NCBI GenBank assembly: GCA_030390025.1
Contig: CM059451.1
Span: 21,452,001-21,516,000, forward strand
DNA from: Squalus acanthias
Lineage: Eukaryota
Length of the DNA stretch: 64,000 bases
Reading direction: 5' to 3'
How positions within the stretch are numbered: the first letter of the stretch is position 1; every line of letters starts with the position of its first letter. The translations under genes were made by a program, and so were the position numbers. Of this stretch, positions 1 to 63,354 are shown piece after piece. Under the pieces are notes generated by a model. It saw nothing but the letters and a program-made list of their open reading frames with translations, searched no databases and was not told where the DNA came from.

Positions 1-399
1 CACCGTAGACATTTGATAACCTTGTTAAAAGTAATAAAGATTGAAAATACTGAATCAAATGTTTTTTTTAGCAGACCCAAGTGTAGTGATGTCAACATGT
101 TAAGAATGCCCTTTATGATCAGCAAGAGTGACTCAGATTGCAGCCAGGTTTGCTTAAAAAAAAGTGATTTAAGCTTTTCATTCCACTTAAATTCAAATAG
201 TGGAGCAGGAAACCTGCTTTGAGTTCTTAATCCCTACAATTTAACTGCCAAAAGTATGTTCTTAAAATAAAATTCAGTGTTTCCAATTTCATATTTAATG
301 CTGTGAAAGCATTAGATATGAACTTCTGATTACTAAATATTCAGAGAAAACATCAACCCTCCAGACACAATCCAAACGCTTGTTCAGGTATCAGACCTG

Positions 400-600
400 T
401 TAAAAGGAGCCAATTCTAATTGCAAAACCATTTATATGGCGTGTTGTGTTTTCTAAAGTGACGTCTGTCAAAATGTCACATTTAAAATCAAAATTAGTGA
501 TTGCCATTTGGCAGATCATGTTTGGTGTTTACTAGCAACCGATTGGGCCTTTTAACATTTTCTGCTGCGGTGGAAGGCGCTTGTGTTGCGCCTCTTCAGT
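400..600 (+). promoter_or_regulatory. Putative promoter of ZC3H10 copy A
   Basis: CCAAT at 410-414, ATGGCG (YY1-like core) at 436-441, TGACGTC (CRE-like) at 459-465, TAGCAAC (RFX half-site) near 533-539 and ATTGG at 542-546, directly upstream of a CpG-rich exon-like block. TSS not determinable. Confidence 0.5.
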
Positions 601-741
601 CTGGAGTTGCTCTTGGCTGGGAGGACCTGGTTTGATGCTCTTTGTCGTGAAGTTACCCTTGACTGGGAGGACCCGCGTTGAGACTCTTTGTGTCGGAGCT
701 GTGAGGGAAGGAGCGGAGTCGAGCTGTGCTGTGCTGTATAG
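590..741 (+). other. ZC3H10: Non-coding exon 1 (5' UTR) of ZC3H10 copy A
   Basis: Ends at donor TAG|GTAAAC (GT at 742). Clearly homologous to 13630-13753 upstream of copy B. Matching acceptor (T)nGCAG ends at 2766. Start is approximate. Confidence 0.6.
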
Positions 742-1234
742 GTAAACCCATCCCTGGTTTGTGAGTTTTAATACCGGTTAAAGTTTCGAGCTCGGTGAGA
801 TTAGTCGAAGATTTTCATGTGTACACGCTGTGCGGAGAAGATTGGGGTTTATTTGTGGGCCGGGGGTCATTTTAATTTGTAACAGGAAGTCGAGGCCTAA
901 AGGCGCCATTACAGCCTGAAATCCAGGGAGCGCGTTTGAGAGCTTCCCGGAACAACAGCTGCAATCTGCAGGGGCTAGGGCTGCAGTCGCCGAATCACTT
1001 GGGTGGAAAATTTGATTAAAGGTGGATTCAAGACAAAAGCAACCGTCGAATAAAGTGCGTTAGTTGGGTGCGTGGCACGCAGGATAAAACCAGCCGCTTG
1101 TGTGGGGGAGGGGAGGAGAATTCTGTTTAAAGATCTGCTATATTTTTTTACACATCGAAATAATCCAATTAATTGCTGGTATTTAAACGGTAATTTTTCT
1201 CACTTTTTTTGGAATGAGTTTAATCTTGTTTGCG

Positions 1235-1340
1235 ACGGCTAGAATTGCAGTTCTTTGGCGCTAAGTCGCTCGTGTCTGGGAGGACCTGTTTGCTCGTTCT
1301 GTTTGGAGGAGTGAGTAAAAGAGCTGAACCGTGTATGTAA
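1235..1340 (+). other. Second, diverged copy of the exon-1 module; possible alternative first exon
   Basis: TCGCTCGTGTCTGGGAGGACCTG matches TTGCTCTTGGCTGGGAGGACCTG in exon 1. Candidate donors AGA|GTGAGT (1311) and TAT|GTAAAT (1337). Confidence 0.35.
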
Positions 1341-2814
1341 ATAGTCCCTGTTTTTTTCTATCTTTTGTAACCGTTCTGACCCACTCTGTTTACTCCGACA
1401 GTTTAAATGTCCAGAGTGAAGGTTTAATTCTGTGTTCGTGTGTGTCATGCAGCAGAAAGTTGAGGCCTAGCAGTCTTGTGATCTGGAAAGCCGTGTCGAA
1501 AATGATTGTGTACATTACCGGAAGTGTAAACATTTCTAGAACTCTTATGGCAAGTACAGGAACTGATGGAACTGTCACATACACTGAAGAGTAAAATACA
1601 TTTTTAGGATTGCAATATGAGTCAGTAAAAGATGATATATCCCCCATTTATAGAACAAAATAGTGTGCGGAATTAAACTTGGTAAAAAGCCAAATTTCTT
1701 GCAAGCATGGTGACCCGAGCCTGCTGTTGCAGTACTCTGACTATAGGAAAGGGAAGAATCCATGATTTCAGACCTGTCTGAGAGCCCTTCTGCGCAGCCC
1801 GATGAGGAAACTTTGTGATCGGTTGGGAAATCTGCATCCCCAGATTTCTGAGGTCAGGTGCCTCTTGGGCCAGCAGGCCCAAGTCATGCGTACTGCTGAT
1901 TCCCATGGAATCACACAAGATATTCCCAATTATTATCACTAGAGCAGCTTGACACAGCGAGGGAGACCTGGACTTGAGGGTCTTCACGCTGATCAGATAC
2001 TTTACCTTTTTACTAAAATGTTGATTTTTGCGACACTTATAAAGTGGGTAGTGCTTTAAACAGACTTCTCATTTAAGGCTACGTTACTTGTTTTCTTTTA
2101 AATTGTTCTGCCCTGTAAGTTTTTAAAAGAAAAAAAATCATGCACTATTGGGAGGTCCATGTGCTTCCTGGGCTCATTGATGTTGTTCTTGAAGTTAGTT
2201 GGGAGTTGGAGAATGATGGCCATGGGTGACTTCACAGTTTTCCTTTCTAGAGGTGTTGTGCCTACCTGCTGCGCAGTGGTACAGCTGAGGTTGGTAACTC
2301 GTGTGGAGGACTGCCATTATGAACTCGTCTAGCACCATTTGTTTGGAGATCTATATATTGCATTATTTTTGAGTGCGTTTTAGTGTTTACCTGTTATAAG
2401 CTTTTCCCTTTTTGAAAGGAGTGCATTACCGCGCCAGAAATGATCTGTTTTGGCATGGCCCACATAATTAAATACAATGCTATAAATTGGAAGACTTCAT
2501 GGACAATCTCAAAATACAGAGCAGTGTGCATTTGTTTTTTGCGCACACCATACTTGTGGATCTGACTGATTCATTTGAGAGTTCTGTATTTTTTCACTTG
2601 TGCGAACAAAAATACAATTGCACAGACTTCTTCGATGCTAATTGTCACTTGATAATTTTGCTACTGCGACTACTCTGAATTCAATGTTTTATGGAATGCG
2701 CAACAGTTACTTTGTAAATGAATCGCTCATTCTCTATAAAGACCTGCCTTTTTTTTTCTTTTGCAGTTGCTTGTGTAGCGCCTTGGCTAAACAGCGCAGA
2801 AATAATCTATAAAA

Positions 2815-3495
2815 ATGCCAGATAACGGCACCGAGGAGGCTGGCCCCAGTACAGATGATATTTGCCGTGACTTCCTGCGCAACGTCTGCAACCGCGGTAA
2901 GCGCTGCAAGTTCCGCCACCCAGACGCTAATGAGATGTCCACCCTTGGCCTTTTATCTTCTGATCTACCCGTTAATAAAGGTGAGATTCCGATCTGCCAC
3001 GACTATCAGAAGGGTGACTGTCAAAGAGGGCCCAAATGTAAGTTCCTGCACGTAAAGCGCGACGAGTATGGTTATGAAAACCAAGGTATGGCGCACAGCC
3101 AGGTGTTTTCTCCCTTGGCACGCAGATATGATCGCTATGATGACCTCTACTCTAGAGGTTATGATGCTGACCACTACGATGGCTACGACACCCACATGAA
3201 GAGGAGAAGGATGGAGGGCATGGGGTTTGAAGTATACGACTACGGCATGCAGAATCCAGGCGCAGCTGACTACCGGTTTCTGAAGGAAGAGAATCTCATG
3301 CTGCAAAAGCGCGTTGAGGATCTCCAAAAACAGGTGTCAAACCTGATGGCCACCAATGAGCTCCTCCTGGAGCAGAATGCAAATCTCCGCAACCAAGTGA
3401 AGATGGGAATGATGACTCCCATGACCCCCATGACCTCCATGACCGCTATGACCCCCACACCCACTGCAACAGCTGGGAGATTCACCACCCAGTGA
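2815..3495 (+). CDS. ZC3H10: ZC3H10-like protein, copy A (226 aa; two CCCH fingers, basic KRRR motif, leucine-zipper-like coiled coil)
   Basis: CRDFLRNVCNRGKRCKFRH, CHDYQKGDCQRGPKCKFLH and EENLMLQKRVEDLQKQVSNLMATNELLLEQN match ZC3H10. Acceptor at 2765-2766 and AAAATG start context; intact ORF. Confidence 0.9.
   Translation: MPDNGTEEAGPSTDDICRDFLRNVCNRGKRCKFRHPDANEMSTLGLLSSDLPVNKGEIPICHDYQKGDCQRGPKCKFLHVKRDEYGYENQGMAHSQVFSPLARRYDRYDDLYSRGYDADHYDGYDTHMKRRRMEGMGFEVYDYGMQNPGAADYRFLKEENLMLQKRVEDLQKQVSNLMATNELLLEQNANLRNQVKMGMMTPMTPMTSMTAMTPTPTATAGRFTTQ
3412..3456 (+). repeat. Coding 9-bp tandem repeat (ATGACYNNN x5, encoding MTP/MTP/MTS/MTA/MTP)
   Basis: atgactccc atgaccccc atgacctcc atgaccgct atgaccccc read directly from the sequence. 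Confidence 0.85.
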
Positions 3496-6400: not shown

Positions 6401-6720
6401 AATGGGAAACCATCACTGCTATAGTTGCATCTTATGGGCTGGAAAGGTTTAATGGTACAGTATATGTATAATGTGTATATATTGATTGCTACATAGTTCT
6501 TTGCTATGGTTAATGCTTTTCTATGCGATTACATGTAGAATGTTCTTTCCCATGGTTAATCGTTCCACTGATGCAGACCTCCAGGACAGCAGAACCTATA
6601 CAGTCCTAAACTAAGTGTACTTTGTTTAATTGTAGACCTTTTAAAGCAAAAATGTGTTCACCTTCATTTCTATGGAAGTCTGTTGAGTGTATAACAATAA
6701 AGCAAATTTTCATTTGTGTA
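3496..6720 (+). other. ZC3H10: Long 3' UTR of ZC3H10 copy A
   Basis: Collinear homology blocks with 27537-30450 (for example 3530-3610 vs 27710-27795, 5170-5260 vs 28630-28725, 6437-6590 vs 30025-30180). Ends at TGTATAACAATAAA followed by a GU/U-rich tract. Confidence 0.65.
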
Positions 6721-12805: not shown

Positions 12806-13629
12806 ATTGCAACATTTTGGAAAATCTTAAGACTGGACAGGCTAAAAGTGGGATCCTGGCTGGAGTTCTTATGTTTGTTTTGCTGCTGATAAATTCATTG
12901 AAAATCTTAGTAACCTTAATAACTAATGCCTCCACATCAGAAGACACACATGAGTAAAAGTAGGGGACTGCAATGAGTCTTGATTTTAACACTTTGGGGA
13001 TGCAAAGAGGGGAAGAACATGTAGAACGGAGTATCTGACTGTATAATTAAGTTCAGAGGCGTACTGACCATATCAATAAAATAGAGATTGGTAGGGAAAC
13101 TTGCAACAGAGGGAGTGAGATTGGAGGCTACAGGTGAGAGGGATCACCTATCCGATGACCATCTTCAGACTTTTTAAACCTAAGCTTAGTATCAACTCAT
13201 CACTACCCCCTGATTTAGCTCTTTTTCTTTACAACCTTGCTGGTAGCCCCAGTTTGGTCTTGGCCCCTTTACTGTAGTTTCTCATTTTAGAAAAAGTAAT
13301 GTGGGGGGGCGGAGGGTGGAATTGACTTTGACCTCAAGTTTTCATTTTTAGAAAGCACCAGAAACGCCATTCAAAAAATTGATCGGTCTAAAACCTAGGT
13401 GAAGTATTGGAGGGTGCTCCCTGCTCATAGAACCATCCCCCAATGAATCATCTTTAGAAGAGAAGGGAAGAAAATTGAGTTTTTAACTTTTACCTTCAAA
13501 ATTCACATCTTGGTGCTTCTGTTTAGCTGCATAATTTTTAATTGTTTTTGAATTCACAAAGAAATTACATACTCTGCATAAAATATAAGATTTTAAATTA
13601 ATGGTGAGATGATTTTAACAGTTTCTTTT

Positions 13630-13753
13630 GGTTGGGAGGAGCTTGTTAATGCCATTTGTGAAATTACCTTTGACTGGGAGGACCTCCATTGAGCCTCTTC
13701 GTTTTGGAGCATCTTCGTGTTGGAGCTACGAGGGAAGGAGCTGAGCTGTGTTG
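13630..13753 (+). other. ZC3H10: Non-coding exon 1 (5' UTR) of ZC3H10 copy B
   Basis: TTGACTGGGAGGACC...GAGGGAAGGAGC...GAGCTGTG followed by donor TTG|GTAATCCCATCCCTGGTTTG, homologous to 617-770. Homology continues into the intron to about 13990. Acceptor TTCTTTTGCAG ends at 26661. Confidence 0.55.
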
Positions 13754-14199
13754 GTAATCCCATCCCTGGTTTGTTAATGTTAAAGTTCTGGGCCCAGTGG
13801 GATTATTTTAAGATTTTATTGTACACACACTGAATGCAATGAGTGTGGGTTAGTTTGGCTGGCAGTCACTTTAATTTGTAGCAGGAAGTCAAGACTTAAA
13901 AAGCCTGGGAGCATGTTGGAGAGGTTCCTCGTACAGTATGTAAAGTGGAACGACTGGTGCTGCAATCACCCAGGCTCATTGGAAAAACAAACCATGAAGT
14001 TAATTCACAAAATAATAAACAATGATGTTTGGTTCACTACAATTGGATTATTAAATTAATGGCTTTTGAAAAAACTCTTTCCTGGTCAGTTTTTTGTGAT
14101 AATTAAGTGTTCGGTCACTTTTAAGGAAAGATCTTATGGCAGTACATCTGTAAATAAATGTTTATTTATTGGAGTACAATGGACTACAGCCCTGCCTAG

Positions 14200-15200
14200 T
14201 TATACATACTCAAAAGTTACAGATTTACCAAATTGATGTGCATATAGGCTGCACCTCCACCCTGCCAAGTTATCCCATGAAAATAATAAACCCTGCAAAA
14301 CACATTTACAGTTTTAAACATAACTTTAATAATTGCAATGACAAACTGGAAACCATACCATAAACAACACACTCCATTACAGCTGTCAAGAAAAATCAAA
14401 ATGCAGTACTGCTACTGAGGGGGAGAAATTACCCATGTACATGTACTAGGGTCCTACTTTACCAGAAAGGAAAAGCAAGCTACAGTTATGGCAGTATTCA
14501 TTGGAGCTGCAGTCTTGAGTTACTAACTAGAATCAAGCAGAGAATCCTCACTTCCATCCATGCTATTGGGGATACAGAAACTTTTTAAATCCTTGCTTAA
14601 AGGATTTCAGTTTGGCCTGTTGCCACACATCCACATATCTGAAGCTGTGCAGGCTTCTTCAGCTGTTCTTTTGGTGTCCCTGTTATTTCACATGTAAAGC
14701 CAGTTGTGGTACTTGTTTTGCAAAACATGCTTCAATGTTTTATTTACAGCCACATTCACGACTTTCAGTTGCCTAGTGGTCCCTCCTGGTGTGGCCGTGT
14801 CAGTTTTGCATCGATGAATTTGCTCTTAAACAGCTAACTTTAAATGATCACAGAAAGCATCCATTCCACGGCACCCGGACTTCGATTTCATGCAGTTCTT
14901 ATCAATTCCCCCCGCCGTACCGTATATGTAAGTCAGGTGGAATTTTATTCTTGGGTAAAAGTGTTTTTCATTTCATTATCACAAATGGCAGGTAGCTTCC
15001 TGCCATCTGGCATGACTGCCAGCATAACTAAATAGCTATTTTTCATTGCCTGTTCAAATGGAAATAGTAGAGTCTGTCTTTTGAATTCACTGGTGCTGCT
15101 AGGCATAGCATATGACATGGGAATTTCATCTGTATTGACCATTAGGTCTAAGATTTATCAATCATACCGTTTTACACAGCCTTATGATGTAGCCCTGGTA
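14200..15200 (-). mobile_element. Pogo/Tigger-type DNA transposon relic (DDE_1 transposase fragments)
   Basis: Minus-strand NTDEIPMSYAMPS and VMLAVMPDGRKLP resemble NMDETP and VLACMADGTKLP. TPGGTTRQLKVVNVAVNKTLK (about 14730-14792) resembles IPGGLTSQLQPLDVSVNKPFK. Multiple frameshifts. Confidence 0.65.
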
Positions 15201-22110: not shown

Positions 22111-23380
22111 AAACACTTGGAATTTCTTTTGCACCAGTTTATCACCAAAGTAACAAAACTTCAGCAAACTTACTGAGAGATTTTTTTATCAGACTCTTGG
22201 CTCCTTCTGATACTAGGCAAGCTGGAAGGTGCACATGCTGTATTTGTGTATCAAAAACACTAAATTATGCCCCCAGTAAGTTGAGGATTTCAGTAGGCTT
22301 TAATCGAATTCATGTGATTTTATCTCTCGTACACTAAATTTATTAACAACAAAATAATCATGGTGTAAACTTTCCATTTGTGCATGATTACTAGCATAAC
22401 CCACAAGGCATTACACAGAACTATATGTGTATTTGGCATGTTACCGAAATAGGGCTGAAATATTCCACATACTGACTAGCCTGAGACAAATTACTTTCCA
22501 GCTTTGGTGAGCTGAAAACTCAGCAGCTTGCAAATAATTCTGATCTTGTTTTTCTCTCAGTACACCTGATCCTTTATGGCCAGTTGCAGCTTTTTGCCTT
22601 CCATAAAAACATAAGGGACTTTGTCTCATCGGACTCTGGTGGGTTCCTTTCAGTATTATTTACATTGAAAACCATACTTGATGCTGTAATAGACACTGAC
22701 TAATGATCTCAAGGAGTTAAAATTTTCATTCAATTTGTAGTGACTTTTGTCAAAATGCAATTTCCAATACAAGTGAACATAATACAAATGTTGAATTGTG
22801 TCTTTGTGCTTAATAACATAACCTCCTAAGCAGTCTACCAAATCTGTGGTCTCATTTTTTGGCATCCCATTTGAGTGAGATCAATCTGTCATAAGCTCTC
22901 ATTTGAATCCCTGCTTGCACTTGCGCTAAATTTTTGCGCTAACGTAGCAAATGGAGAAAAATGCATCTAATTCTAGCCAGCTCCTCTGCTGCTGATTGCT
23001 GCCTTCATCACCGCTTGTGCAAGGTGTTCGTGGGGCTCCTTCAGATTCTTGTTATGAAAAGCCTTAAGCCTGGCTCCCAGTGTTACTAGAAACTACCCTC
23101 CCTGCCGATTGCCACTGTCCTGTGCCTTTTATTTGCTGTATGATGTTCATTTCAGCCTTTGAGCATCAGTTACTAACTTTCTTCAAGGATAAAGATGCTG
23201 GCTTTAAATATGCATCTGGCGCATAATGGGATACTTTCAGACTCTCACTGGTATGAAACCTGCAGGAAGACCTTAGAGAGCAGTTGAGGAGGATTTTCAT
23301 AATGCTGAATTTTTGGAGTTGCGGCTTTTATTTCACGATCATACTGCTACTTATACTGGATGCAATGCTTTTTTTTTGGT

Positions 23381-23717
23381 GGCAAACAACTGACAGATCT
23401 GTGTCAGTGACTATGAGCAAAACCAGTGCCAGTTCTGAATAGCACTAGACATGCGCAAAAAAAAAATGGAATAATTATAGCAATATCCTGGCAAGCAACC
23501 AACTAACAGATCTGTGCCAATGGTTGAGCAAAACCAGTGCCAGTTCTGGATAGCACTAGCCATGCGCAAAAAGAAAAAAATGGAATAATTATAGCAATAT
23601 CCTGGCAAGCAACCAACAGATCTGTGTCAGCGGCTATGAGCAAGAGCAGTGCCAGTTCTGGAGATAGCACTAGTCATGCGCAAAAAAAAATGGCATAATT
23701 ATAGCAATATCCTGGCA
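23381..23717. repeat. Tandem repeat, three units of about 110-115 bp
   Basis: GGCAA.CAAC...ACAGATCTGTG.CA...GAGCAA...CAGTGCCAGTTCTG..TAGCACTAG.CATGCGC(A)nTGG.ATAATTATAGCAATATCCT repeated three times. Confidence 0.9.
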
Positions 23718-26696: not shown

Positions 26697-27536
26697 ATGG
26701 CAGACAATAATGTTGTTAACAATGGCAAAGACGAGGCTGGCCAGAGCACGGAAGACGTTTGCCGGGACTACCTGCGCAATGTCTGCTATCGCGGCAAGAC
26801 CTGCAAGTACCTCCACCCGGACATAAATGAGGTACATGACCTAGGCGTGAAAAAGAATGAGTTTGTCTTCTGTCATTACTTTATGAATAATGTTTGTACC
26901 CGTGCAAAGTGCACATTCATACACGGGACATCAGAGGATGAGGAATACTACAAAAAAACAGGGGAGCTTCCCCTGCACTTGCGTTCCAAGGTGGCTGAAA
27001 CCTACGGTCTGTCAGTTTCTGACCTACCTGCTGATAAAGGTGAGATTCCAGTATGCCGTGACTACCTTAAAGGTGACTGTCAAAGAGGCTCAAAATGTAG
27101 ATTCCGGCACTTCAAACGTGACAATTCAGAACATGAAATCAGACTGTCACGAGACCCCCCACTTTCTCAGCCATTGCGTAGATATGATCGAGTGGATAAT
27201 GACAGTGGCATCAATTGTTATGAGTATGACCACCGCTTGAAGAGGAGAAAGTTGGAAGGGTTTGAGTTTGAAGTGTACGAGTACGATCTCACAAGTCGAC
27301 GGTCAGTTGACTCCGGATACTTGGAGGAGGAGAACCTTATGCTGCGAAACCGGAATGAGGAACTCAAAAAGCAGGTGTCCAATTTGATGGGCAACAATGA
27401 GGTGCTTCTGGAGCAGAATGCATTTCTCCGCAACCAAATAAAGGCAGCAATGGTGAACTCCTTGCCCACAACGACAACTGGGAGATTCAGCCACTGCACT
27501 TCCCCAGGGGTTAAGACCAGGGGACTTTGGGAGTAA
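26697..27536 (+). CDS. ZC3H10: ZC3H10-like protein, copy B (279 aa; three CCCH fingers, KRRK motif, coiled coil)
   Basis: CRDYLRNVCYRGKTCKYLH, CHYFMNNVCTRAKCTFIH, CRDYLKGDCQRGSKCRFRH, linker YKKTGELP and EEENLMLR...LKKQVSNL...NEVLLEQN all match ZC3H10; intact ORF. Confidence 0.92.
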   Translation: MADNNVVNNGKDEAGQSTEDVCRDYLRNVCYRGKTCKYLHPDINEVHDLGVKKNEFVFCHYFMNNVCTRAKCTFIHGTSEDEEYYKKTGELPLHLRSKVAETYGLSVSDLPADKGEIPVCRDYLKGDCQRGSKCRFRHFKRDNSEHEIRLSRDPPLSQPLRRYDRVDNDSGINCYEYDHRLKRRKLEGFEFEVYEYDLTSRRSVDSGYLEEENLMLRNRNEELKKQVSNLMGNNEVLLEQNAFLRNQIKAAMVNSLPTTTTGRFSHCTSPGVKTRGLWE

Positions 27537-30450
27537 AACACTTCCAAACATTGCAAAATCTGAAAATTAATCCAATAGTTCTAATGGGCTGACTTCCAAA
27601 ATTCTCAACATCTCAGCAGTGACCCTATATGTTTAAATGCATCAGAGTTTCTGCTCCCTGTGACATTGGGCGGGAGGGAGGGGGGTGCTATCCTTGAGGA
27701 ATACTATTCAAGTCCTGAAACGTACTGTTTATTGCTTCAGTCTATTCAATCAAGGAACATACCAAGCTTCTTGACAATTTGAAAAGGCCCTGCAGGAAGC
27801 ATCTATGGATTTTAGCTGGAATAGCTTTTGCTTGATGCTGGCAGCAATGGCTAAGTTAAGTCATAGTGGGAAAAATTGTTACTTGGAAGAGGCGTTGACG
27901 AGCTTGCACAAATGGTAGTTGCCCAAAGTAGGGTCAGCATCATAGGAAATGCAAATCTTTTGCAAACTTTGTTGAAATACAGCTTGTGTCTTAACACCAT
28001 ACCTAGTGCAAAAAGCAATGTATAAAACAACAGGTTAATTTCAAGGCCATACTCACTGTGTGTGGGGGAGTGCTACCACAGACTTTTAATGGTGATCTGG
28101 GTTACAATGTATTTGGGACCAGAATGGTGGTGGCCATGCTGCCTTTGGACTGAGATACCAACATCAATGTTCCAAAACCTCTCTAATTGAGTGATCTGGA
28201 ACAGCTTCTAACATGTCTGAGACAAAAATGTAAACCATTGCAAAGGAACTCTGATAACGTTACAATACCAGTCAAGTGAGTACCCTGAAATCCAATGACA
28301 CAATAAAGCTGCAATGCTTTTTTTTCTCCTAAGATGTGCTGCCTTGCAAACCGAACAGTGCGGCTGGCATGTAATGAAAGAAAGCAAATTATGTGGGTTA
28401 TCCCTATGTTGTCCAAAATGGACACTCATCTTTTTTGAATAGAAAATGTATAATGGTAGTGTATATACCGCACCCATTTTGACTTTTTGGCAATCTGCAC
28501 ATCTTGACTCACATTGAGCAATTCCCTCCCAACCCCTTGAAACAATAGAAACCCTCATTATACTTATTCTCTTTCCCCCTTCCCCCCCCCCCCCCAAACA
28601 CACACACATCTGAGAACTTGTAATATCATAAACTACAGTAATACTGGGTAATGGTCACATTGGATATCAGCAGTTAAATGCGCAGGTACTAGATGCTATG
28701 GAATTCCTTTCTATCCTGTTAGTCCAAAAAGTCATGTGAATTTGCAGTTCTAAGGGTGCATAGGAATAAATGTAAGTATTCAGTGAAGGAGTCTGTGTAA
28801 CTGAAATCTGGTGTTATTTCTATTCAGTTACTCAAATATTGTGTACATTGTACTTGTAATCCAATAATGTTTCATAAAATGGTATCTGGTATTCACAGTT
28901 TGGCTACACAAGATACTGGATCAGCACATGGCGGTATCCGTATGTCCCCAGTTCTGTTATACTAACCAATCTCTCAGCCTCAGTAAGAAAATGCCAGACT
29001 TGGGACAGAAGCGGAACTTGTATGCAAGGAGGCGCATAATGTCACTGCTTGAGAGGTACACTTTCAGAACTGAAACGTTCTTTGGGTCTTATAGATGCCT
29101 TTGGCAGTTTTGAATGTCACGTGTTCAGCCTACTGCTTCTTAACATCAGTATGCTGAAAATGCTCTCTTTCCCTCCCCCAAATATATTTAATATTACACA
29201 ACCCTGTGTGAACTTGCTGAATGAGCTTAGTTGTTTGCCTGTGAATATTCGGGAATAATATTATTAACCCTTTCCAGCCAAGGAAGCCAGGCCCAGACTT
29301 CAAATATAAAGACCAGCAGCTCCAAAATGTTATATTTTTATGATGTGTTTATACTAAAATGGCTGTAAGCTCTCCAGACATATTTTATGTCTTTGGCAGA
29401 TGTCAGTCAGCTTAGTATAAACATTAGTATACCCAAGGTGCCCTGGAACTCCACTAGGATTAGTTTCACGAGGCATTTACCAAAACACCCACAACGCAGT
29501 TTCTTAAAGACATTAGACTTCTAGTGAGAAAATGGCTGTGATGTTCCATTATTAGGACCATGTGTTTGTGCTATACATAGTCTCAATAATAGTTTTTTTT
29601 CTTTCTCTTGCAGCTCTCAGCCACAGTAGTTGTAAAGCGTGAAGTTGATATTTTTGTACTTTTGTTTTACACCATGCTAATTGTGGTATATTAATGCAAA
29701 AGGAGTTGAAGTCCATAGGGCTCGGCACTTGGGCAAAAGTGCTTTTAAGTTCCATTTAAAAAAAATAATGGACTTCCATAATAGTGATTGCTAATCTCGA
29801 ATACATATGAGTTATGACAATTAAGCCACATTTATATCCCTTTTTAGAGTTCCGTTTTTCAGTAGTTTGAGTTCATTATCCCATAAACATTGTATTAGAC
29901 ATTGTTGCATTGAATTTAAATTCTTTGAAATGGTTAGTAGATTAATAGATGCTGCAGATGACGAATAGTCTGGATATTAGAGGCCATAAAATTACTGATC
30001 TGCACTTTCATGCCTTTATTTTGTGGGCTGGAAAGGTTTAATGATGCAGTATATATGTTAATTCTATTATATATACTGATTGCTATGGTATTTGTTACCG
30101 TCAGTGCTTTTCTTTGCGATTACGTCAATGTTCTTTCTCAAGGTTAATCTTTCCACTGATAGAAAGACCTTCAGGATTGCAGATACTTAGTTTAAATCAA
30201 CAGAGATTCCTCCAGTGTGTAGGAGAACCTACATTGAAATCACAGTCCCCTACATTGAAAATTGGCCACATCTTAAAAAACATAAAAGATACCTTTTTAA
30301 TTTGTTAATACCTGCCATCTATTAAATCCTACATTGATACCTAACCCCCTCCATTCATTTACTGTTTAATTGTGCGCCTTTTAAAAGTAGAAATTTCTGA
30401 AAGCCTATTGGTGAGTGTATAACAATAAAGTAATTTTTCACTTATTAAGT
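27537..30450 (+). other. ZC3H10: Long 3' UTR of ZC3H10 copy B, with polyA signal AATAAA at 30424-30429
   Basis: Collinear with the 3' UTR of copy A; conserved terminal GAGTGTATAACAATAAAG. Confidence 0.65.
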
Positions 30451-50039: not shown

Positions 50040-51693
50040 CAGCCTACTCCCAAGGTCCCCCCATCACAGAAGCCAGTCTTCAGCCAATTTGATTCACTCC
50101 ACGTGAAATCAAGAAACAGCTGAGCGCACTGGATACAGCAAAGGCTATGGGCCCCGACAACATCCCGGCTATCGTGCTGAAGACTTGTGCTCCAGAACTA
50201 GCCGCGCCTCTAGCCAAGCTGTTCCAGTACAGCTACAACACTGGCATCTATCCAACAATGTGGAAAACTGCCCAGGAATGTCCTGTCCACAAAAAGCAGG
50301 ACAAATCCAATCCGGCCAATTACCACCCCATCAGTCTTCTCTCAATCATCAGCAAAGTGATGGAAGGTGTCATCGACAGTGCTATCAAGCGGCACTTACT
50401 CACCAATAACCTGCTCACTGATGCCCAGTTTGGGTTCTGCCAAGACCGCTCGGCTCCCGACCTCATTACAGCCTTGGTCCAAACATGGACAAAGGAGCTG
50501 AATTCCAGAGGTGAGGTGAGCGTGACTGCCCTTGACATCAAGGCAGCATTTGACCGAGTGTGGCATCAAGGAGCCCTAGTAAAACTGAAGTCAATGGGAA
50601 TCGGGGAAAACGCTCCACTGGCTGGAGTCATACCTAGCACAAAGGAAAATGGTTGTGGTGATTGAAGGTCAATCATCACAGCCCCAGGACATCGCTGCAG
50701 GAGTTCCGCAGGGCAGCGACCTAGGCCCAAACATCTTCAGCTGTTTCATCAATGACCTTCCCTCCAACATAAGGTCAGAAATGGGGATGTTCGCTGATGA
50801 CTGCACAGTGTTCAGCGCCATTCACAACTCCTCAGATAATGAAGCAATCCATGCCCGCATGCAACAAGACCTGGATGACGTTCAGGCTTGGGCTAATAAG
50901 TGGCAGGTAACATTCGCGCCACAGAAGTGCCAGGCAATGACTATCTCCGACAAGCGAGAGTCTAACCACCTCCCCTTGACATTCAATGGCATTACCATCG
51001 CCGAATCCCCCACCATCAACATCCTGGGGGTCACCATTAACCAGAAACTTAAATGGACCAGCCACATAAATACTGTGGCAACAAGAGCAGGTCAGAGGCT
51101 AGGTATTCTGCAGCGAGTGTCTCGCCTCCTGACTCCCCAAAGCCTTTCCACCATCTACAAGGCACAAGTCAGGAGTGTGATGGAATACTCTCCACTTGCC
51201 TGGATGAGTGCAGCTCCAACAACACTCAAGAAGCTCGACACCACCCAGGACAAAGCAGCCCGTTTGATTGGCACCCCATCCACCACCTTAAACATTCACT
51301 CCCTCCACCACCGGCGTACCGTGGCTGCAGTGTGTACCATCTACAAGATGCACTGCAGCAACTCCCCAAGGCTTCTTCGGCAGCACCTCCCAAACCCGCG
51401 ACCTCTACCACCTAGAAGGACAAGGGCAGCAGACGCATGGGAACACCACCTCCTCCAAGTTCCCCTCCAAGTCACACACCATCCTGACTTAGTGGTATAT
51501 CGCCAATCCTTCATCGTCGCTGGGTCAAAATCCTGGAACTCCCTACCTAACAGCACTAGGAGTACCTTCACCACACGGACTGCAGCGGTTCACGAAGGCG
51601 GCTCACCACCACCACCTTCTCAAGGGCAACTAGGGATGGGCAATAAATACTGGCCTTGCCAGCGACGCCCAGATCACAGAAGCGAATAAAATA
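50040..51693 (+). mobile_element. Young 5'-truncated non-LTR retrotransposon (CR1/L2 superclade), RT region with one frameshift
   Basis: ORFs 50147-50665 and 50649-51689: NYHPISLLSIISKVME, ALDIKAAFDRVWH, GVPQGS.LGP, MFADD; ends GAATAAAATAAAA. Confidence 0.95.
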
Positions 51694-51744
51694 AAACCTG
51701 AGCTTTTTTTAACTGTACGGGGAACAGACATTTTCTTCATCAAT

Positions 51745-56240: not shown

Positions 56241-57419
56241 GCAGGAAATGGACTATAACTTTGGTAGAAGACCAAATGATAAGTTACCATTATCTGGTGC
56301 CAGACCCTCATGGGCTGAGGAAATTTCTACGGCAATGTTAAATGAATCACTAAAGTGTTCAAGAACTGAGTTTCAAATAATATGTAACATGGCAAGAAGA
56401 TTATATGTGGAACAGCCATGCCAAAACTGTACTAAAGGATTAGACCAGAACTTTCAATGTGATGGTTAATTTGAGCATTAATAATAGCTTCATATCTTCC
56501 TCCTATAGCATGAGGAAATGTTGTATTCTCACCTGTATTTTGGCACCACTACACCATCCAGGTTATTGGATGAGGACCACTCAGAGACCAGATGCAGACC
56601 CACCATTACAGTAATATGAAAAAATTACTACTGCTGCTTTTATTCCACCAACAGAAAGCTGGCAGTCGCCTGTCATTATGGTGACAAAATAGGAAGAATT
56701 GTGTGCACGTGTAGAAGGACATTTTAAAGGGATAGTTGGATTTAAATGACACAACCCAAAAAAACAATTCAGGTTGCCTGGGGTTTCAAATTTGTCCATC
56801 CTTGCAAACTACAGACAGCCACCATCTGTGTAATACACCCAGTGACCTGTACTAAAGTAGAACCAGTTAGAAACAACAACCTCATGACAACAGACATCCC
56901 AGCTTTCAAAATCCTATTCCACTGCTAAAGCCATCACTCCTACTATTTGAAACTGTTTGAAATGCTCCAGGTTCAGAATACGTGGAGTGCCTTTCATCCT
57001 GAATCAGGGCTAAAACTTTACTTTGTGTCAGAGTGGTAGTATTCTTTTTATCAGCAGTTTTAATCAGCAATAAAACTGCTCTGGACAGGGATGCAGAACG
57101 ACTTGGAAAACTGGGGGACTATTGGGATCCTCAGCAAAACAGCCTACATTTCAGATGCTGGAACAGAATGGTGGCAGGGTTGGTATTTTGGAAGGAAGAG
57201 ATCAAATGGGCCATGTATCAATCACTAGGAGTGACACTCACTTTGATTTTACAATGTAACTCGTTTTGATGGATGTCACTCAGTAATAAACACAACTCCA
57301 CGTGGGTGGGGGGAGACTTTCTCTATTGGTAACAAAACCGGAACCCATTTATAAACTGGTTTACCATTTTGTTACACTGAAGAATCACGCCCACCCACCC
57401 CTCATGTAGAAATTACTTT

Positions 57420-60215
57420 TTTTTAAATTTGTTTATGGGATGTGGGCGTCGCTGGCAAAGCCAGTATTTATTGCCCATCCCTAGTTGCCCTTGAGAAGGT
57501 GGTGGTGAGCCACCTTCTTGAACCGCTGCAGTCCGTGTGGTGAAGGTGCTCCCATAGTGCTGTTAGGTAGGGAGTTCCAGGATTTTGACCCAGCGGCGAT
57601 GAAGGAACGGCCGATATATTTCCAAGTCGGGATGGTGTGTGACTTGGAGGGGAACTTGGAGGTGGTGGTGTTCCCATGCGCCTGCTGCCCTTGTCCTTCT
57701 AGGTGGTAGAGGTCACGGGTTTGGGAGGTGCTGCCGAAGAAGCCTTGGCGAGTTGCTGCAGTGCATCTTGTAGATGGTACACACTGCAGCCATGGTACGC
57801 CGGTGGTGGAGGGAGTGAATGTTTAAGGTGGTAGATGGGGTGCCAATCAAGCAGGCTGCTTTGTCCTGGATGGTGTCGAGCTTCTTGAGTGTTGTTGGAG
57901 CTGCACTCATCCAGGCAAATGGAGAGTATTCCATCACACTTCTGACTTGTGCCTTGTAGATGGTGGAAAGGCTTTGGGGAGTCAGGAGGTGAGATACTCG
58001 CTGCAGAATACCCAGCCTCTGACCTGCTCTTTTTGCCACAGTATTTATGTGGCTGGTCCAGTTAAGTTTCTGGTCAATGGTGATCCCCAGGATATTGATA
58101 GTGGGGGATTCGGTGATAGTAATGCCGTTGAAGTCAAGGGGCGGTGGTTAGATGCTCGCTTGTTGGAGATAGTCATTGCCTGGCACTTGTGTGGCACGAA
58201 TTTTACCTGCCACTTATTAGCCCAAGCCTGAATGTTGTCCAGGTCTTGCTGCATGCGGGCATGGACTGCTTCATTATCTGAGGAGTTGTGAATGGCACTG
58301 AACACTGTGTCGTCATCAGCGAACATCCCCACTTCTGACTTTATGATGGAGGAAAGGTCATTGATGAAGCAGCTGAAGATGGTTGGGCCTAGGACACTGC
58401 CCTGAGGAACTCCTGCAGCGATGTCCTGGGGCTGTGATGATCATCCTCCAACCACCACAACCATCTTCCTTTGTGCTAGGTATGACTCCAGCCAGTGGAG
58501 AGTTTTCCCCCCGATTCCCATTGACTTCAGTTTTACTAGGGCTCCTTGATGCCACACTCGGTCAAATGCTGCCTTGATGTCAAGGGCAGTGATTCTCACC
58601 TCACCTCTGGTATTGAGCTGTTTTGTCCATGTTTGGACCAAGGCTGTAATGATGTCTGGAGCTGAGTGGTCCTGGTGGAACTCAAACTGGACATCAGTGA
58701 GCAAGTTATTGGTGAGCAAGTGCTGCTTGATAGCACTGTCGACGACACCTTCCATCACTTTGCTGATGATTGAGAGTAGACTGATGGGTCGGTAATTGAC
58801 CAGATTGGGTTATAGCTGTACTGGAACAGCTTGGCTAGATGTGCGTCTAGTTCTAGAGCACAAGTCTTCGGCACGACAGCCGGGATGTGGTAGGGTCCCA
58901 CAGCCTTTGCTGTATCCAGTGCGCTCAGCCGTTTCTTGATATCACGTGGAGTGAATCGAATTGGCTGATGGTGGGGACCTCAGGAGGAGGCCGATATGAT
59001 CATCCACTCGACGCTTCTGGCTGAAGATGGTTGCAAATGCTTCAGCTTTGTCTTTTGCACTCACGTGCTGGGCTCCACCATCATTGAGGATAGGGATATT
59101 CATGGAGCCTCCTCCTCCCGTTAGTTGTTTAATGGTCCACCACCATTCACGACTGGATGTGGCAGGACTGCAGAGCTTTGATCTGATCCATTGATTGTGG
59201 GATCACTTAGCCCTGTCTATAGCATGCTGCTTCCGCTTTTTAGCATGCATGTAGTCCTGTGTTGCAGCTTTCCCAGGTTGGCACCGCATTTTTAGGTACG
59301 CCTGGTGCTGCTCCTGGCATGCTCTTCTACACTCCTTATTGAACCAGGGTTGGTCCCCTGGCTTGATGGTAATGGTAGAGTGAGGGATATGCCGGGCCAT
59401 GAGGTTACAGATTGCGGTGGAATACAATTCTTCTGCTGCTGATGGCCCACAATGCCTCATGGATGCACAGTTTTGAGCTGCTAGATCTGTTCTGAATCTA
59501 TCCCATTTAGCACGGTGTCCTCAGTGTGAAGACGGGGCTTCGTCTCCACAATGACTGTGCGGTGGTCACTGCTACCAATGCTGTCATGGACAGATGCATC
59601 TGTGACAGGTAGATTGGTGAGGACAAGGTCAAGTAGGTTTTTCCCTCGTGTTGGTTCTCTCACCACCTGCCTCAGGTCCAGTCTGGCAGTTATGTCCTTC
59701 AGGACTCGGCCAGCTCGGTCAGTAGTGGTGCTACCGAGCCACTCTTGGTGATGGACATTGAAGTCCCCCACCCAGAGTACATTCTGTGCCCTTGCCACTC
59801 TCAGTGCTTCTTCCAAGTGGTGTTCAACATGGAGGAGTACTGATTCATCAGCTGAGGGAGGGCGGTAGGTGGTAATCAGCAGGAGGTTTCCTTGCCCATG
59901 CTTGACCTGAAGCCATGAGACTTCATGGGGTCCGGAGTCAATGTTGAGGACTCCCAGGGCCACTCCTTCCTGACTGTACACCACTGTGCCGCCACCCTTG
60001 GTGGGTCTGTCCTGCCGGTGGGACAGGACATACCCAGGGATGGAGATGGAGGAGTTTGGGACATTGGCTGAAAGGTATGATTCTGTGAGTATGATTATGT
60101 CAGGCTGTTGCGTGACTAGTCTGTGGGACAGCTCTCCCAATTTTGGCACAAGTCCCCAGATGTTGGTGAGGAGGACTTTGCAGGGTCAACTGGGCTGGGT
60201 GTGCCGTTGTCGTGT
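57420..60215 (-). mobile_element. Non-LTR retrotransposon with near-complete ORF2 (APE endonuclease plus RT), frameshifted; same family as 50040-51693
   Basis: IIILTESYL, YRPP, WVGDFNVHH, LLDLVL and SDH endonuclease motifs (59481-60149); ALDIKAAFDRVWH, MFADD and YKAQVRSVMEY RT motifs; A-rich 3' end near 57420. Confidence 0.95.
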
Positions 60216-61076: not shown

Positions 61077-61403
61077 ATGGATCGAAGGGCCAGCGCTCGC
61101 GAGGAGGGGGCGCCGGCCTCCGCTGGCGGGACCCCTGAGGAAGCCGGGGCGCCGAGCTTGGCCGCCACCGACATGATGGCTCTGCTAACCAGGTTCGGCA
61201 AGACGCTGCTGTGGCTCATGCCGATCTATCTGACCGGTTACTTCGGGCTGAGTGTCAGCTTTCTGGTTTTCGGGCTGGTGCTGTGGATGGGCTGGAAAAT
61301 GCGGAGGGAGAGCAAGTGGAACAGGCTGAGGGACGCCTTCTACCTCCTGGAGAACGAAGAGACCGTCACCAAAAAGAAGACCAACAAGAGCCTTCCAGCC
61401 TGG
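61077..61403 (+). CDS. ESYT1: Extended synaptotagmin-1, first coding exon (N-terminal membrane hairpin); gene continues beyond the window
   Basis: FGKTLLWLMPIYLTGYFGLSVSFLVFGLVLWMGW...LLENEE...LPAW is the ESYT signature. Phase-0 donor TGG|GTAAGG at 61404. Adjacency to ZC3H10 favours ESYT1 over ESYT2/3. Confidence 0.88.
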
Positions 61404-63354
61404 GTAAGGGACGGGCAGCAGGAAGCTTCGCCGTGCAGAAAGTGCAAGAGTTTTCTTTTTTTAGTTACAAAGTTTCTGTATCTGGGGGATCGCAATCCCA
61501 GTCAGAAACATTATTGGGGGGAAGAGGGATGCGCGGGGTCCTAACGCCGGTGCTATCTCCTCATTCCAGATGTGCGCTCGTATCATTCCTACAAATATAT
61601 CTGCAGCAGTGCACATTTTTTTAAAAAGTTCACATGGCTATAAGATGTGTGCATGTTATAGAAAATATCTGTAACGATGTTAAATTCAGATGTTATTTAT
61701 GCTTCCACTTTTTATTCAAGGGTTGTGATTTGAATTTGAATACTTAGGGTTTATAAAACCTATCTCGATATGAAGGATGATTTGTTGTATTTCTGCAGAT
61801 AAGGGTTGGTAGTGGTGGGGTGGAAGTTCCAAGAGGGTGCGGTCATACTACTGCATTCTGATACTTTTTACATTGCATGCCTTTGGTGATAAAATATTAT
61901 TTTTAATTGTAGCAGATTTTAGGATGGTTTGTTCTTTTGGATGTTCTTCCTGATTAGATCTGTTAGAAATTTGTTGTGAGGGGGTTGCTGTGCATGGGGC
62001 ACTGGGTGTGGAATGTATCCTTCCTTACTTCCCAGCGCAGAGGTGGCTCTGAAGCAAAAACACATTTTTAATGTTGTTACAATTTTTGATACAAGCTTGC
62101 AGTTCAGTGGAGCATAGCAACCTCGATCGCACAGATTGCAGCCACCGTTCCATTAAAGTGGAATAATCTGCATTACTCACCAGTACAGATGTTGAGGCAG
62201 TTAATCTATGAGAGGGGAGGGAGGGTGGGTGGGGGTGGAGACGACAGTAGAGGGATACAATGCCTGTCCTCTCCTCATTCTAGATATCCGATATACCATA
62301 CTGTTGAAAATGAAAAAAGCATGGGCACAGAGTCTACATCTGATTGAACACTTTTTTTTGATTTTATGGGATTTGGTCACACTGGATGGTATTGGTGCAC
62401 TGATGCTCTAATTCACAGCATTATAAACAGATGGGATTTGTGTTCTCATCCCATGATTTCCATGGGGAAGGTACTAAGTAAAGGCACTTTGTTGCAAGGA
62501 GGGAGGGAATAGTAATAGATTAGTTATATCCCCCTTTGATGCTTGGCTCCGAGATGTGCTCCCTAGGCATTCCCCAGAAGCTGAGAAGCAGCTTCCATGA
62601 CTGCCCTTTCTGCTGCTGGAGGATGTGTGCCAAAGGGTGATCCAAGTGCGGGGGGAATCAAGTAACTTATGACTGGAGCAAAATAGGAGTTTATCTTATT
62701 TGGACTCCACGTTATTGCTTTTTAAATTTATGTTTTGAGGGTGATAGTCTATCTTAAGGCATTTCTCCCCCCCGCTCCCCTCCCCTCCTCCACACTTGAT
62801 TCTCCCTGCACCACACACACCATTCCTGCCTGAGAAGATGATCTGTGTCCAGTAGGCACTTTGCTTTGTTCAGTCCATTCCTCAGGGGCTGCTGTGATAT
62901 GGACGAAGGACCCCAGGTATGAACCTGCATTGCACCACATCATAGCGCAATGCATTGGGGCCAGTTGAAGAAAGTGTTGTGAACAAAAATGAAATACTGA
63001 AGGAACTTGGCAGTTACCGAGTTAAAAGCACTCCATATAAAGTATGCTGTAAAATCAGTTGCTCTTTAAATGAAACACAGATGGACAGGCTATGAGGGAA
63101 CAGTTTAGCAGGATTCTGGGACACTAATATTTGGTTATGGAGAATCTGCTGGTAAATTGGAAGCAGTATTGTTAGGGAGCAAATCCCAGCTTCTTTCAGT
63201 GTCCATGATTGAACAGATGCTGGTCCATGTTCTCTCAATGCAGCAGGCACTCACAGATAGAACCAGTGGCTGATGTTAATGGACTTCAAATTGGAGCCTT
63301 TACCTGACTTGAAACAGCAGGTCTCCTCAGAGTGCACTGCAGTAAAAAAAAATC

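Follow-up and report, generated by a model that had tools for sequence, protein, structure and literature searches.

The stretch of Squalus acanthias DNA analysed here (64,000 nt, referred to below as the window) carries two ZC3H10-like single-exon open reading frames on the + strand, copy A with two CCCH fingers and copy B with three (Table 1). Best matches and tree placement both put A among the ZC3H10 proteins, and its first finger (ZF1), NLS and coiled coil occur in the order and with the spacing conserved in that family. Profile and tblastn searches found no third ZC3H10 copy in the window, and there was no trace of the canonical C-terminal tail of about 140 aa in A, in B or anywhere in the window, nor of a detached tail exon. 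An Rfam search gave 0 matches. Three non-coding blocks are common to A and B, namely an upstream block with a GT donor, an acceptor before the ATG and a downstream block, and these point to a tandem duplication at the DNA level and rule out a retrocopy. The dN/dS ratio of A versus B was 0.30 over 184 codons.

Table 1. Features of copies A and B, by position in the window.
Feature	Positions	Strand	Remarks
A coding sequence	2815-3495	+	single coding exon, 226 aa: ZF1, putatively remodelled ZF3, NLS, zipper, short tail
A finger 1	2863-2919 (aa 17-35)	+	ZF1 type, C-x7-C-x5-C-x3-H
A deletion junction zone	2936-2953	+	best 2949/2950, ambiguous over about 16 nt; 54 codons fewer than B and canonical
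A finger 2	2995-3051 (aa 61-79)	+	ZF3 spacing and flanks; ZF2-signature H62 (2998-3000), Q65 (3007-3009), L78 (3046-3048)
A KRRR	3199-3210	+	aligns with mammalian NLS (aa 205-213; NLS from the available part of PMC13375009)
A leucine zipper	3280-3387	+	d = L156-L191, a = N,V,V,N,N,V; predicted helix aa 150-199
A upstream block common to B	605-901	+	71% to 13620-13900; GT donor at 742; putative 5' non-coding exon
A polypyrimidine tract, AG acceptor (2765-2766), coding-exon 5' UTR	2741-2814	+	homologous to B's
A downstream non-coding block common to B	6429-6593	+	76% to 30018-30183; AATAAA at 6696; probable 3' UTR element
B coding sequence	26697-27536	+	279 aa: three fingers, NLS, zipper, without canonical tail
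B segment missing in A	26847-27008	+	162 nt: ZF2 (26871-26924), two predicted helices (aa 79-88, 93-102)
B leucine zipper	27321-27428	+	a = N,N,V,N,N,I; N220 (27354-27356) as in six-finger class, unlike A or canonical
B copy of upstream block	13620-13900	+	GT donor at 13754; putative 5' non-coding exon
B copy of downstream block	30018-30183	+	

Several further features of the window were recorded. CpG observed/expected was 0.63-0.67 near the upstream block and intron of A (1-3000) and 0.27 near B's copy of the block (13001-15000), a contrast hinting at different methylation or promoter use. The tail of A is made Met-Thr-Pro/Ser-rich by short 9-nt repeats (about 3411-3460), which are not found in the chimaera orthologue. 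A CpG-rich, first-exon-like ORF at 61077-61403 (+), with a donor GTAAG at 61404, has a hydrophobic stretch and ends in LPAW; we take it to resemble exon 1 of an extended synaptotagmin (ESYT), and Pfam, PDB and Atlas searches gave no identification for it. Such an identity would fit bird gene models (P0104, P0336) that fuse ZC3H10 to SMP/C2 domains, a place ahead of an ESYT gene being one mark of the canonical ZC3H10 locus. Remains of LINE-type retroelements (Pfam RVT_1, endonuclease) lie at 50304-51696, 57418-58811, 43511-44380, 47112-47522 and 59484-60185 and include two copies in inverted orientation with 92% identity along 1.4 kb, and 23380-23717 is a tandem repeat with a period of about 113 nt and 86-89% identity.

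Copy A lacks 162 nt of B that encode 54 aa and contain the complete second finger (ZF2). An earlier note on this DNA had described a clean in-frame loss of finger 2, and the coordinates, the 54-aa translation and a MAFFT alignment that independently places a 162-nt gap all agree with that description. The missing segment has no real match elsewhere in the window (the next blastn hit had E 1.2, and tblastn found only A's own finger, E 4e-4). The linker from ZF1 to the last finger measures 79 aa in the six tabulated proteins with at least three fingers and 25 aa (79-54) in A. A BLASTP alignment that split finger 1 of A between ZF1 and ZF2 was set aside, since this finger and the residues following it match canonical ZF1.

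The junction proposed in that note, 2949/2950, is the best placement with a score of 40, but it is ahead by one match, and shifting it by anything between -13 and +3 nt gives 37-40. Leu-Gly (LG) dipeptides at both breakpoints, which the note had given for the human sequence, were found 54 aa apart in 105 of the 115 three-finger homologues with a 79-aa span. The microhomology that the note had drawn from them gains from this LG pair at both ends, but at the DNA level B has no exact repeat of at least 4 nt at 162-nt spacing and carries LG/YG there; a microhomology-mediated deletion is plausible, and the LG pair could be a repeatable breakpoint. In the AlphaFold2 model of B, ZF2 and the helices at 79-88 and 93-102 are confident (pLDDT 82-89) and flanked by weaker linkers. 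This would make about this block alone cleanly removable, a second reason for the fixed size of the loss.

Conservation in relatives and read support show that the deletion is not private to this assembly; a private deletion unsupported by reads was the first of the outcomes that would have undone the note's claim. A is identical at 225/226 positions to P0123, a Logan read-assembly protein from a 13-member cluster (the cluster of B has 16 members), and at 166/214 to P0124 of Callorhinchus milii, which has the identical 25-aa linker length. A and P0124 group at 100/98-99 in two trees. A canonical shark-chimaera pair is identical at 308/400 positions, and core identity is 77.5% for A-P0124 versus 73.8-76.2% for canonical shark/skate-chimaera pairs, so A appears constrained as much as the canonical gene. 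No zinc ligand is missing from either finger of A, and shark and chimaera share 93% identity across 55 columns of the fingers, versus 72% over 108 columns of the zipper half. As judged from sequence conservation, A is under selection. As the chimaera lineage split from the elasmobranchs about 420 million years ago (PMC6238376, available in part, as are all papers cited here by PMC number), the loss of ZF2 in A predates the holocephalan-elasmobranch split. P0124 and the canonical P0007 show the same longest contig size, 5,336,420, which suggests a single scaffold. A second tail-less two-finger protein of Callorhinchus milii, P0126 (248 aa, 18-aa linker), has fingers resembling those of A, carries some residues of B type close to the zipper and groups with A at 89/84.

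It is thus very improbable that A stems from an error of assembly or annotation, is a pseudogene, or was retrocopied from an exitron-spliced transcript. Artefacts of this kind exist, as the gene models P0109 and P0125 show partial ZF2 gaps that mimic the deletion of A and are probably annotation artefacts, but their breakpoints differ, the gap of A sits in genomic DNA, and its junction is shared by independent read-assembled and chimaera proteins. The pseudogene reading was rejected on the intact ORF, the dN/dS of 0.30 and the conservation to chimaera. The exitron/retrocopy origin was rejected as well, the acceptor, the upstream exon with its donor and the 3' block all being kept and no GT-AG pair that would yield 162 nt lying within 15 nt of the junction.

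Copy B is not the canonical gene. It is identical at 270/279 positions to P0003 of the sawshark Pristiophorus and 59-62% identical to canonical chondrichthyan ZC3H10, a protein some 400 aa long whose C-terminal tail is conserved. The three fingers of a canonical orthologue are present in B and not in A, and the proline-rich tail, whose absence the earlier note does not mention, is present in neither. B is thus itself a derived, tail-less paralogue, and a comparison of a three-finger original with a two-finger copy is the wrong frame. A survey of top matches, with class labels of our own, revealed at least five chondrichthyan ZC3H10 classes with 2, 3 or 6 fingers. The canonical class has three fingers and the tail, and the B class (P0003) three fingers without it. 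The A class has ZF1 and ZF3 without the tail (P0123, P0124 and, as a second chimaera copy, A2, P0126), and the C class has ZF1 and ZF3 with the tail (14 proteins, 12 of them named, from sharks, rays and chimaera, e.g. P0127-P0130). The D class comprises four proteins (P0192, P0325, P0327, P0329) that are 545-557 aa long and occur in sharks and one ray, with ZF1 four times followed by ZF2, ZF3 and the tail. Its ZF1 repeat has a period of about 53 aa and its tail has diverged; Chiloscyllium and Narcine are identical at 466/544 positions, and the class lies outside the window. The contigs of the C copies differ in size from those bearing canonical or D copies in the same species.

Of the 243 proteins retrieved that have both ZF1 and the zipper, 23 were flagged as lacking ZF2; five were dropped (three pattern misses and two gene models with other breakpoints), leaving 18, namely A itself, 14 named chondrichthyan proteins and three unnamed. 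All chondrichthyan classes split from bony-vertebrate ZC3H10 at 98/95-98, and the expansion thus looks lineage-specific. The ZF2 of B is atypical, with Tyr and Met where nearly all ZF2 carry Asp and Gln, and the specificity of B may therefore have shifted too. Rhinoraja has two near-identical canonical copies (P0005 and P0006) on a contig of one size, and salamanders have shorter, diverged three-finger paralogues (P0071, P0098, P0102), which indicates that the ZC3H10 locus duplicates repeatedly. The A, B, C and D proteins are already predicted and auto-named ZC3H10-like in NCBI/UniRef, where A is the orthologue of P0124. Titles and the starts of abstracts, in a search that most subscription papers lie outside, gave no account of this expansion, finger loss or remodelling.

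The class survey raises the question of whether ZF2 was lost once or twice. Trees built without the deleted columns place A together with B and D, with support of 96/94 (33 chosen rows) and 95/93 (22 rows), and the C class stands apart from A/B/D at 100/96-100, so that two changes of ZF2 state are needed; the C class probably lost finger 2 independently of A. A single loss, with A as a chimera or conversion product (5' half from the C class, 3' half from B/D) or with B and D regaining ZF2 by conversion, is the less probable account but one to be taken seriously, an estimate made independently of the readings of mechanism discussed below. A linker of exactly 25 aa is common to A, P0124 and, of the 13 C-class proteins tabulated, 6, and an A+C clade survived the AU test in the main set (p 0.099) and in both partitions (0.18, 0.22), whose 5' and 3' trees gave no resolution. 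It was rejected (p 0.044), however, in the 22-row set, which leaves out P0126, the C proteins of other linker lengths and invertebrates. The derived states that A shares in its 5' half are divided two with B/D and two with C, but in the 3' half five are shared with B/D and none with C. A and B have tail loss and a similar end motif in common, and the LG pair would allow recurrent breakage, both of which also speak for two losses.

Of 12 comparable columns, three set the second finger of A apart from canonical shark ZF3 (R to H62, L to Q65 and R to L78), and these changes are identical in shark and chimaera. Among 104 distinct ZF2, 97 have His, 103 Gln and 104 a hydrophobic residue at the respective sites; the corresponding counts among 94 distinct ZF3 are 1, 6 and 3. 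The complete set occurs in 96/104 ZF2 and 0/94 ZF3. The gain in ZF2-profile score of the A finger (12.2) exceeds that of all 94 natural ZF3 (maximum 8.2), and four simulated nulls gave p <= 8e-5, in a test that was post hoc and against a null lenient enough for three-finger controls (D and Latimeria) to reach p 0.008-0.05. Nine C-class fingers were scored likewise: two batoid fingers lay above the natural maximum (10.1 and 10.9), one reached 8.1, two about 4 and four 2.7 or less. We read the two batoid fingers as a parallel gain of ZF2-likeness.

These residues suggest that the ZF3 of A has replaced the lost ZF2, with compensation as the putative cause of the pattern. Since spacing and flanks remain of ZF3 type and the changed sites are non-contiguous, point substitutions would be a simpler route than recombination. 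ZF1 and ZF2 are the reported pri-miRNA binders (PMC6911170), which would give selection a reason to refill the ZF2 slot. Counting against remodelling, L78 may normally pack on the helices missing in A. Each of the three finger types has an arginine corresponding to human R89, and A therefore keeps one (R71). The AlphaFold2 model of A has a pTM of 0.28, a linker at aa 49-52 with pLDDT below 50 and no confident packing of ZF1 on ZF3. Foldseek found nothing for this model at E 0.001 (best E 0.014), and VIA-align of the B model returned generic helices (best Z 5.4) and left the finger module unmatched. Tandem CCCH modules (MBNL1 ZF1-2/3-4, CPSF30, TIS11d) are the nearest solved sequences or folds (E 6e-7 to 1e-5 for B, at least 0.014 for A). 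In contrast to these members of another family, the pair in A has a 25-aa linker, no confident packing and no significant fold match.

As the earlier note had stated, A and B each have six heptad leucines and a KRRR or KRRK motif, respectively; the sixth leucine, however, is F/Y in the tabulated canonical, C-class and bony-vertebrate rows, and hence was not simply kept. The zipper a positions read N,V,I/V,N,N,T in the canonical class, N,N,V,N,N,I/V in B and D, and N,V,V,N,N,V in A, so that A/A, A/canonical and A/C pairs have zero Asn mismatch and A/B and A/D pairs one (V167 of A against N220 of B). Asn-Val a-a' pairs strongly destabilise bZIP coiled coils, according to the available part of PMC4335062, and an A/A or A/canonical dimer would thus be likelier than A/B.

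ESMFold2 was run on the B/A pair only, without the proteins' own alignments, and placed B 190-256 and A 137-203 in a parallel in-register dimer with a score of 0.63 (best of three controls 0.00), with a contact agreement between runs of at least 91% and a partner pLDDT of at least 76. Among microbial pairs, 51 of 78 solved and 2 of 108 mismatched ones attained this mark; for eukaryotic pairs the figures were 39 of 65 solved and 2 of 126 mismatched. The controls were unrelated proteins, and close cousins pass too (10/12). Leucine zippers are well represented among solved structures, and the B/A pair, which passed despite the V167/N220 mismatch, probably did so by likeness to those. The pass supports the competence of the modelled zipper and is uninformative on which family member binds.

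The A-B heterodimer put forward in the earlier note thus stands as regards an intact zipper able to form a modelled parallel dimer, and is weakened as regards B as the partner. We regard it as quite unlikely that A works specifically by heterodimerising with its neighbour. The genes are adjacent, have homologous non-coding blocks and gave a good B/A zipper model, but the core mismatch, the passing of close cousins and the Asn pattern of B, which fits the six-finger class instead, all point elsewhere, and among the matches listed for Callorhinchus an A orthologue is present and a three-finger tail-less B-type protein is not.

With its heptad leucines, Asn at a positions and, in the predicted model, a parallel dimer, A has a bZIP-like trait. 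In bZIP proteins a basic-region signature, N-x7-R/K-x9-L, is continuous with the zipper. None of 17 proteins fits this signature in any of the three registers tried, Pfam gave no bZIP family at E 0.1 and only TSC22 (E 0.03-0.07), and the basic cluster lies 23 aa upstream of the zipper; by these marks A is not a true bZIP. The literature searched gave no paper showing self-dimerisation of ZC3H10. The zipper may serve other partners, such as the coiled-coil region of Dot1l, ZC3H10 binding having been mapped to a Dot1l coiled-coil fragment (PMC7661038).

ZC3H10 has been reported to act in the processing of pri-miRNA, in transcription for mitochondria and thermogenesis and in restraining interferon, and an RNA motif, GCAGCG/AGUGCAG, has been given (PMC11612968). 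The available part of PMC6911170, citing Treiber 2017, states that ZF1 and ZF2 bind pri-miRNA and that mutating either blocks binding. It also reports that UCP1 promoter binding and activation require the 'bZIP' region, the fingers being dispensable, and that S126 is phosphorylated by p38; A, P0124 and B lack this Ser-Pro site, which the canonical and D rows have. ISG repression in human cells was lost when the NLS, any one finger or the coiled coil was deleted (PMC13375009), and the two-finger A may therefore be inactive in that process. On whether fingers or zipper bind DNA, the available parts of PMC6911170 and PMC13375009 disagree. R89 was called critical (PMC13375009), although by our reading the R89A primers printed there translate after ZF3 (near 193, marmoset numbering) and not in ZF2, so that this point needs care. 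H96, the ZF2 histidine, was methylated by CARNMT1 on peptide arrays (PMC12275196), and the available part of PMC7879490 adds nothing further on ZC3H10 domains. The numbering of marmoset P0050 fits the residue positions cited.

Like canonical vertebrate ZC3H10, A has ZF1, the ZF3 scaffold, a KRRR NLS 23 aa before the zipper and zipper Asn at a1, a4 and a5, with 68.6% core identity to the Chiloscyllium canonical protein. Unlike it, A has no ZF2 or helices, tail or S126 Ser-Pro, its last finger carries ZF2-type residues, and both A orthologues have R to Q and K to Q at zipper e2/e3. Without ZF2 and the helices there is no in-place equivalent of human R89, H96 or Y105. CHOP, A-ZIP and ID-type proteins are dominant-negative zipper partners. 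A resembles these in being a shortened paralogue that keeps its dimerisation helix; unlike them, it retains two conserved fingers of nucleic-acid-binding type, and ZC3H10 has no bZIP basic-region signature.

These comparisons bear on what A does. A tandem DNA duplicate in the A/B/D branch would have lost a self-contained module of ZF2 and two helices between Leu-Gly dipeptides 54 codons apart, which would have brought ZF3 next to ZF1; ZF3 would then have gained the three residues that mark ZF2, rebuilding a pair of ZF1 and a ZF2-like finger. The product would most likely be a nuclear nucleic-acid-binding protein that dimerises through its zipper and retains RNA binding, with an altered affinity or specificity, but has neither the canonical C-terminal tail nor the p38 Ser-Pro site. 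Acting as an A/A or A/canonical dimer, and less as a dimer with B, it would modulate canonical ZC3H10 or compete with it. On balance we lean, by a modest degree, towards A as such a nuclear two-finger RNA-binding paralogue, its ZF3 replacing ZF2, that dimerises with itself or canonical ZC3H10 and modulates the latter; its RNA binding, dimerisation and choice of partner are deduced from sequence features and models.

Alternatively, A may be an RNA-binding-dead separation-of-function or dominant-negative partner that poisons canonical dimers or performs only the zipper-dependent promoter work, which we consider unlikely. The reported block of pri-miRNA binding by ZF1 or ZF2 mutation, the loss of ISG repression on deletion of ZF2 and the activation of UCP1 by the 'bZIP' region without the fingers would fit such a protein, as would the missing tail and S126 site and zipper a positions that match canonical ones. 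However, intact zinc ligands and fingers better conserved than the zipper half speak against it, and a directional gain of ZF2 residues is unexpected of dead fingers. The earlier note had also offered a dominant negative and altered RNA specificity: the former is weakened, since a surviving finger that gained ZF2 residues, stayed conserved and seems to have replaced ZF2 argues against a simple dominant negative, and the latter is plausible. The age of A, the probable recurrence of the loss and the apparent remodelling of the finger add to the note's account, and its A/B dominant-negative model is not favoured by the evidence.

A is not a new kind of system. A bolder proposal, which we hold doubtful, is that the ZC3H10 classes form a domain-swap series in which two independent deletions removed the ZF2 module at one and the same Leu-Gly pair, ZF3 drifting in both cases to ZF2 identity and restoring RNA binding, while in a third lineage ZF1 multiplied to give six fingers, the zipper Asn patterns marking two dimer networks (A/canonical/C and B/D). 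If this were true, the three residues would encode the specificity of the second finger position. Natural paralogues that differ in finger number (2, 3 or 6) and in having or lacking the tail, and that have been conserved for more than 400 million years, would separate the functions of ZC3H10, and A points to three directly testable residues. A is also a clean example of a complete module being deleted and the adjacent repeat apparently compensating for it.
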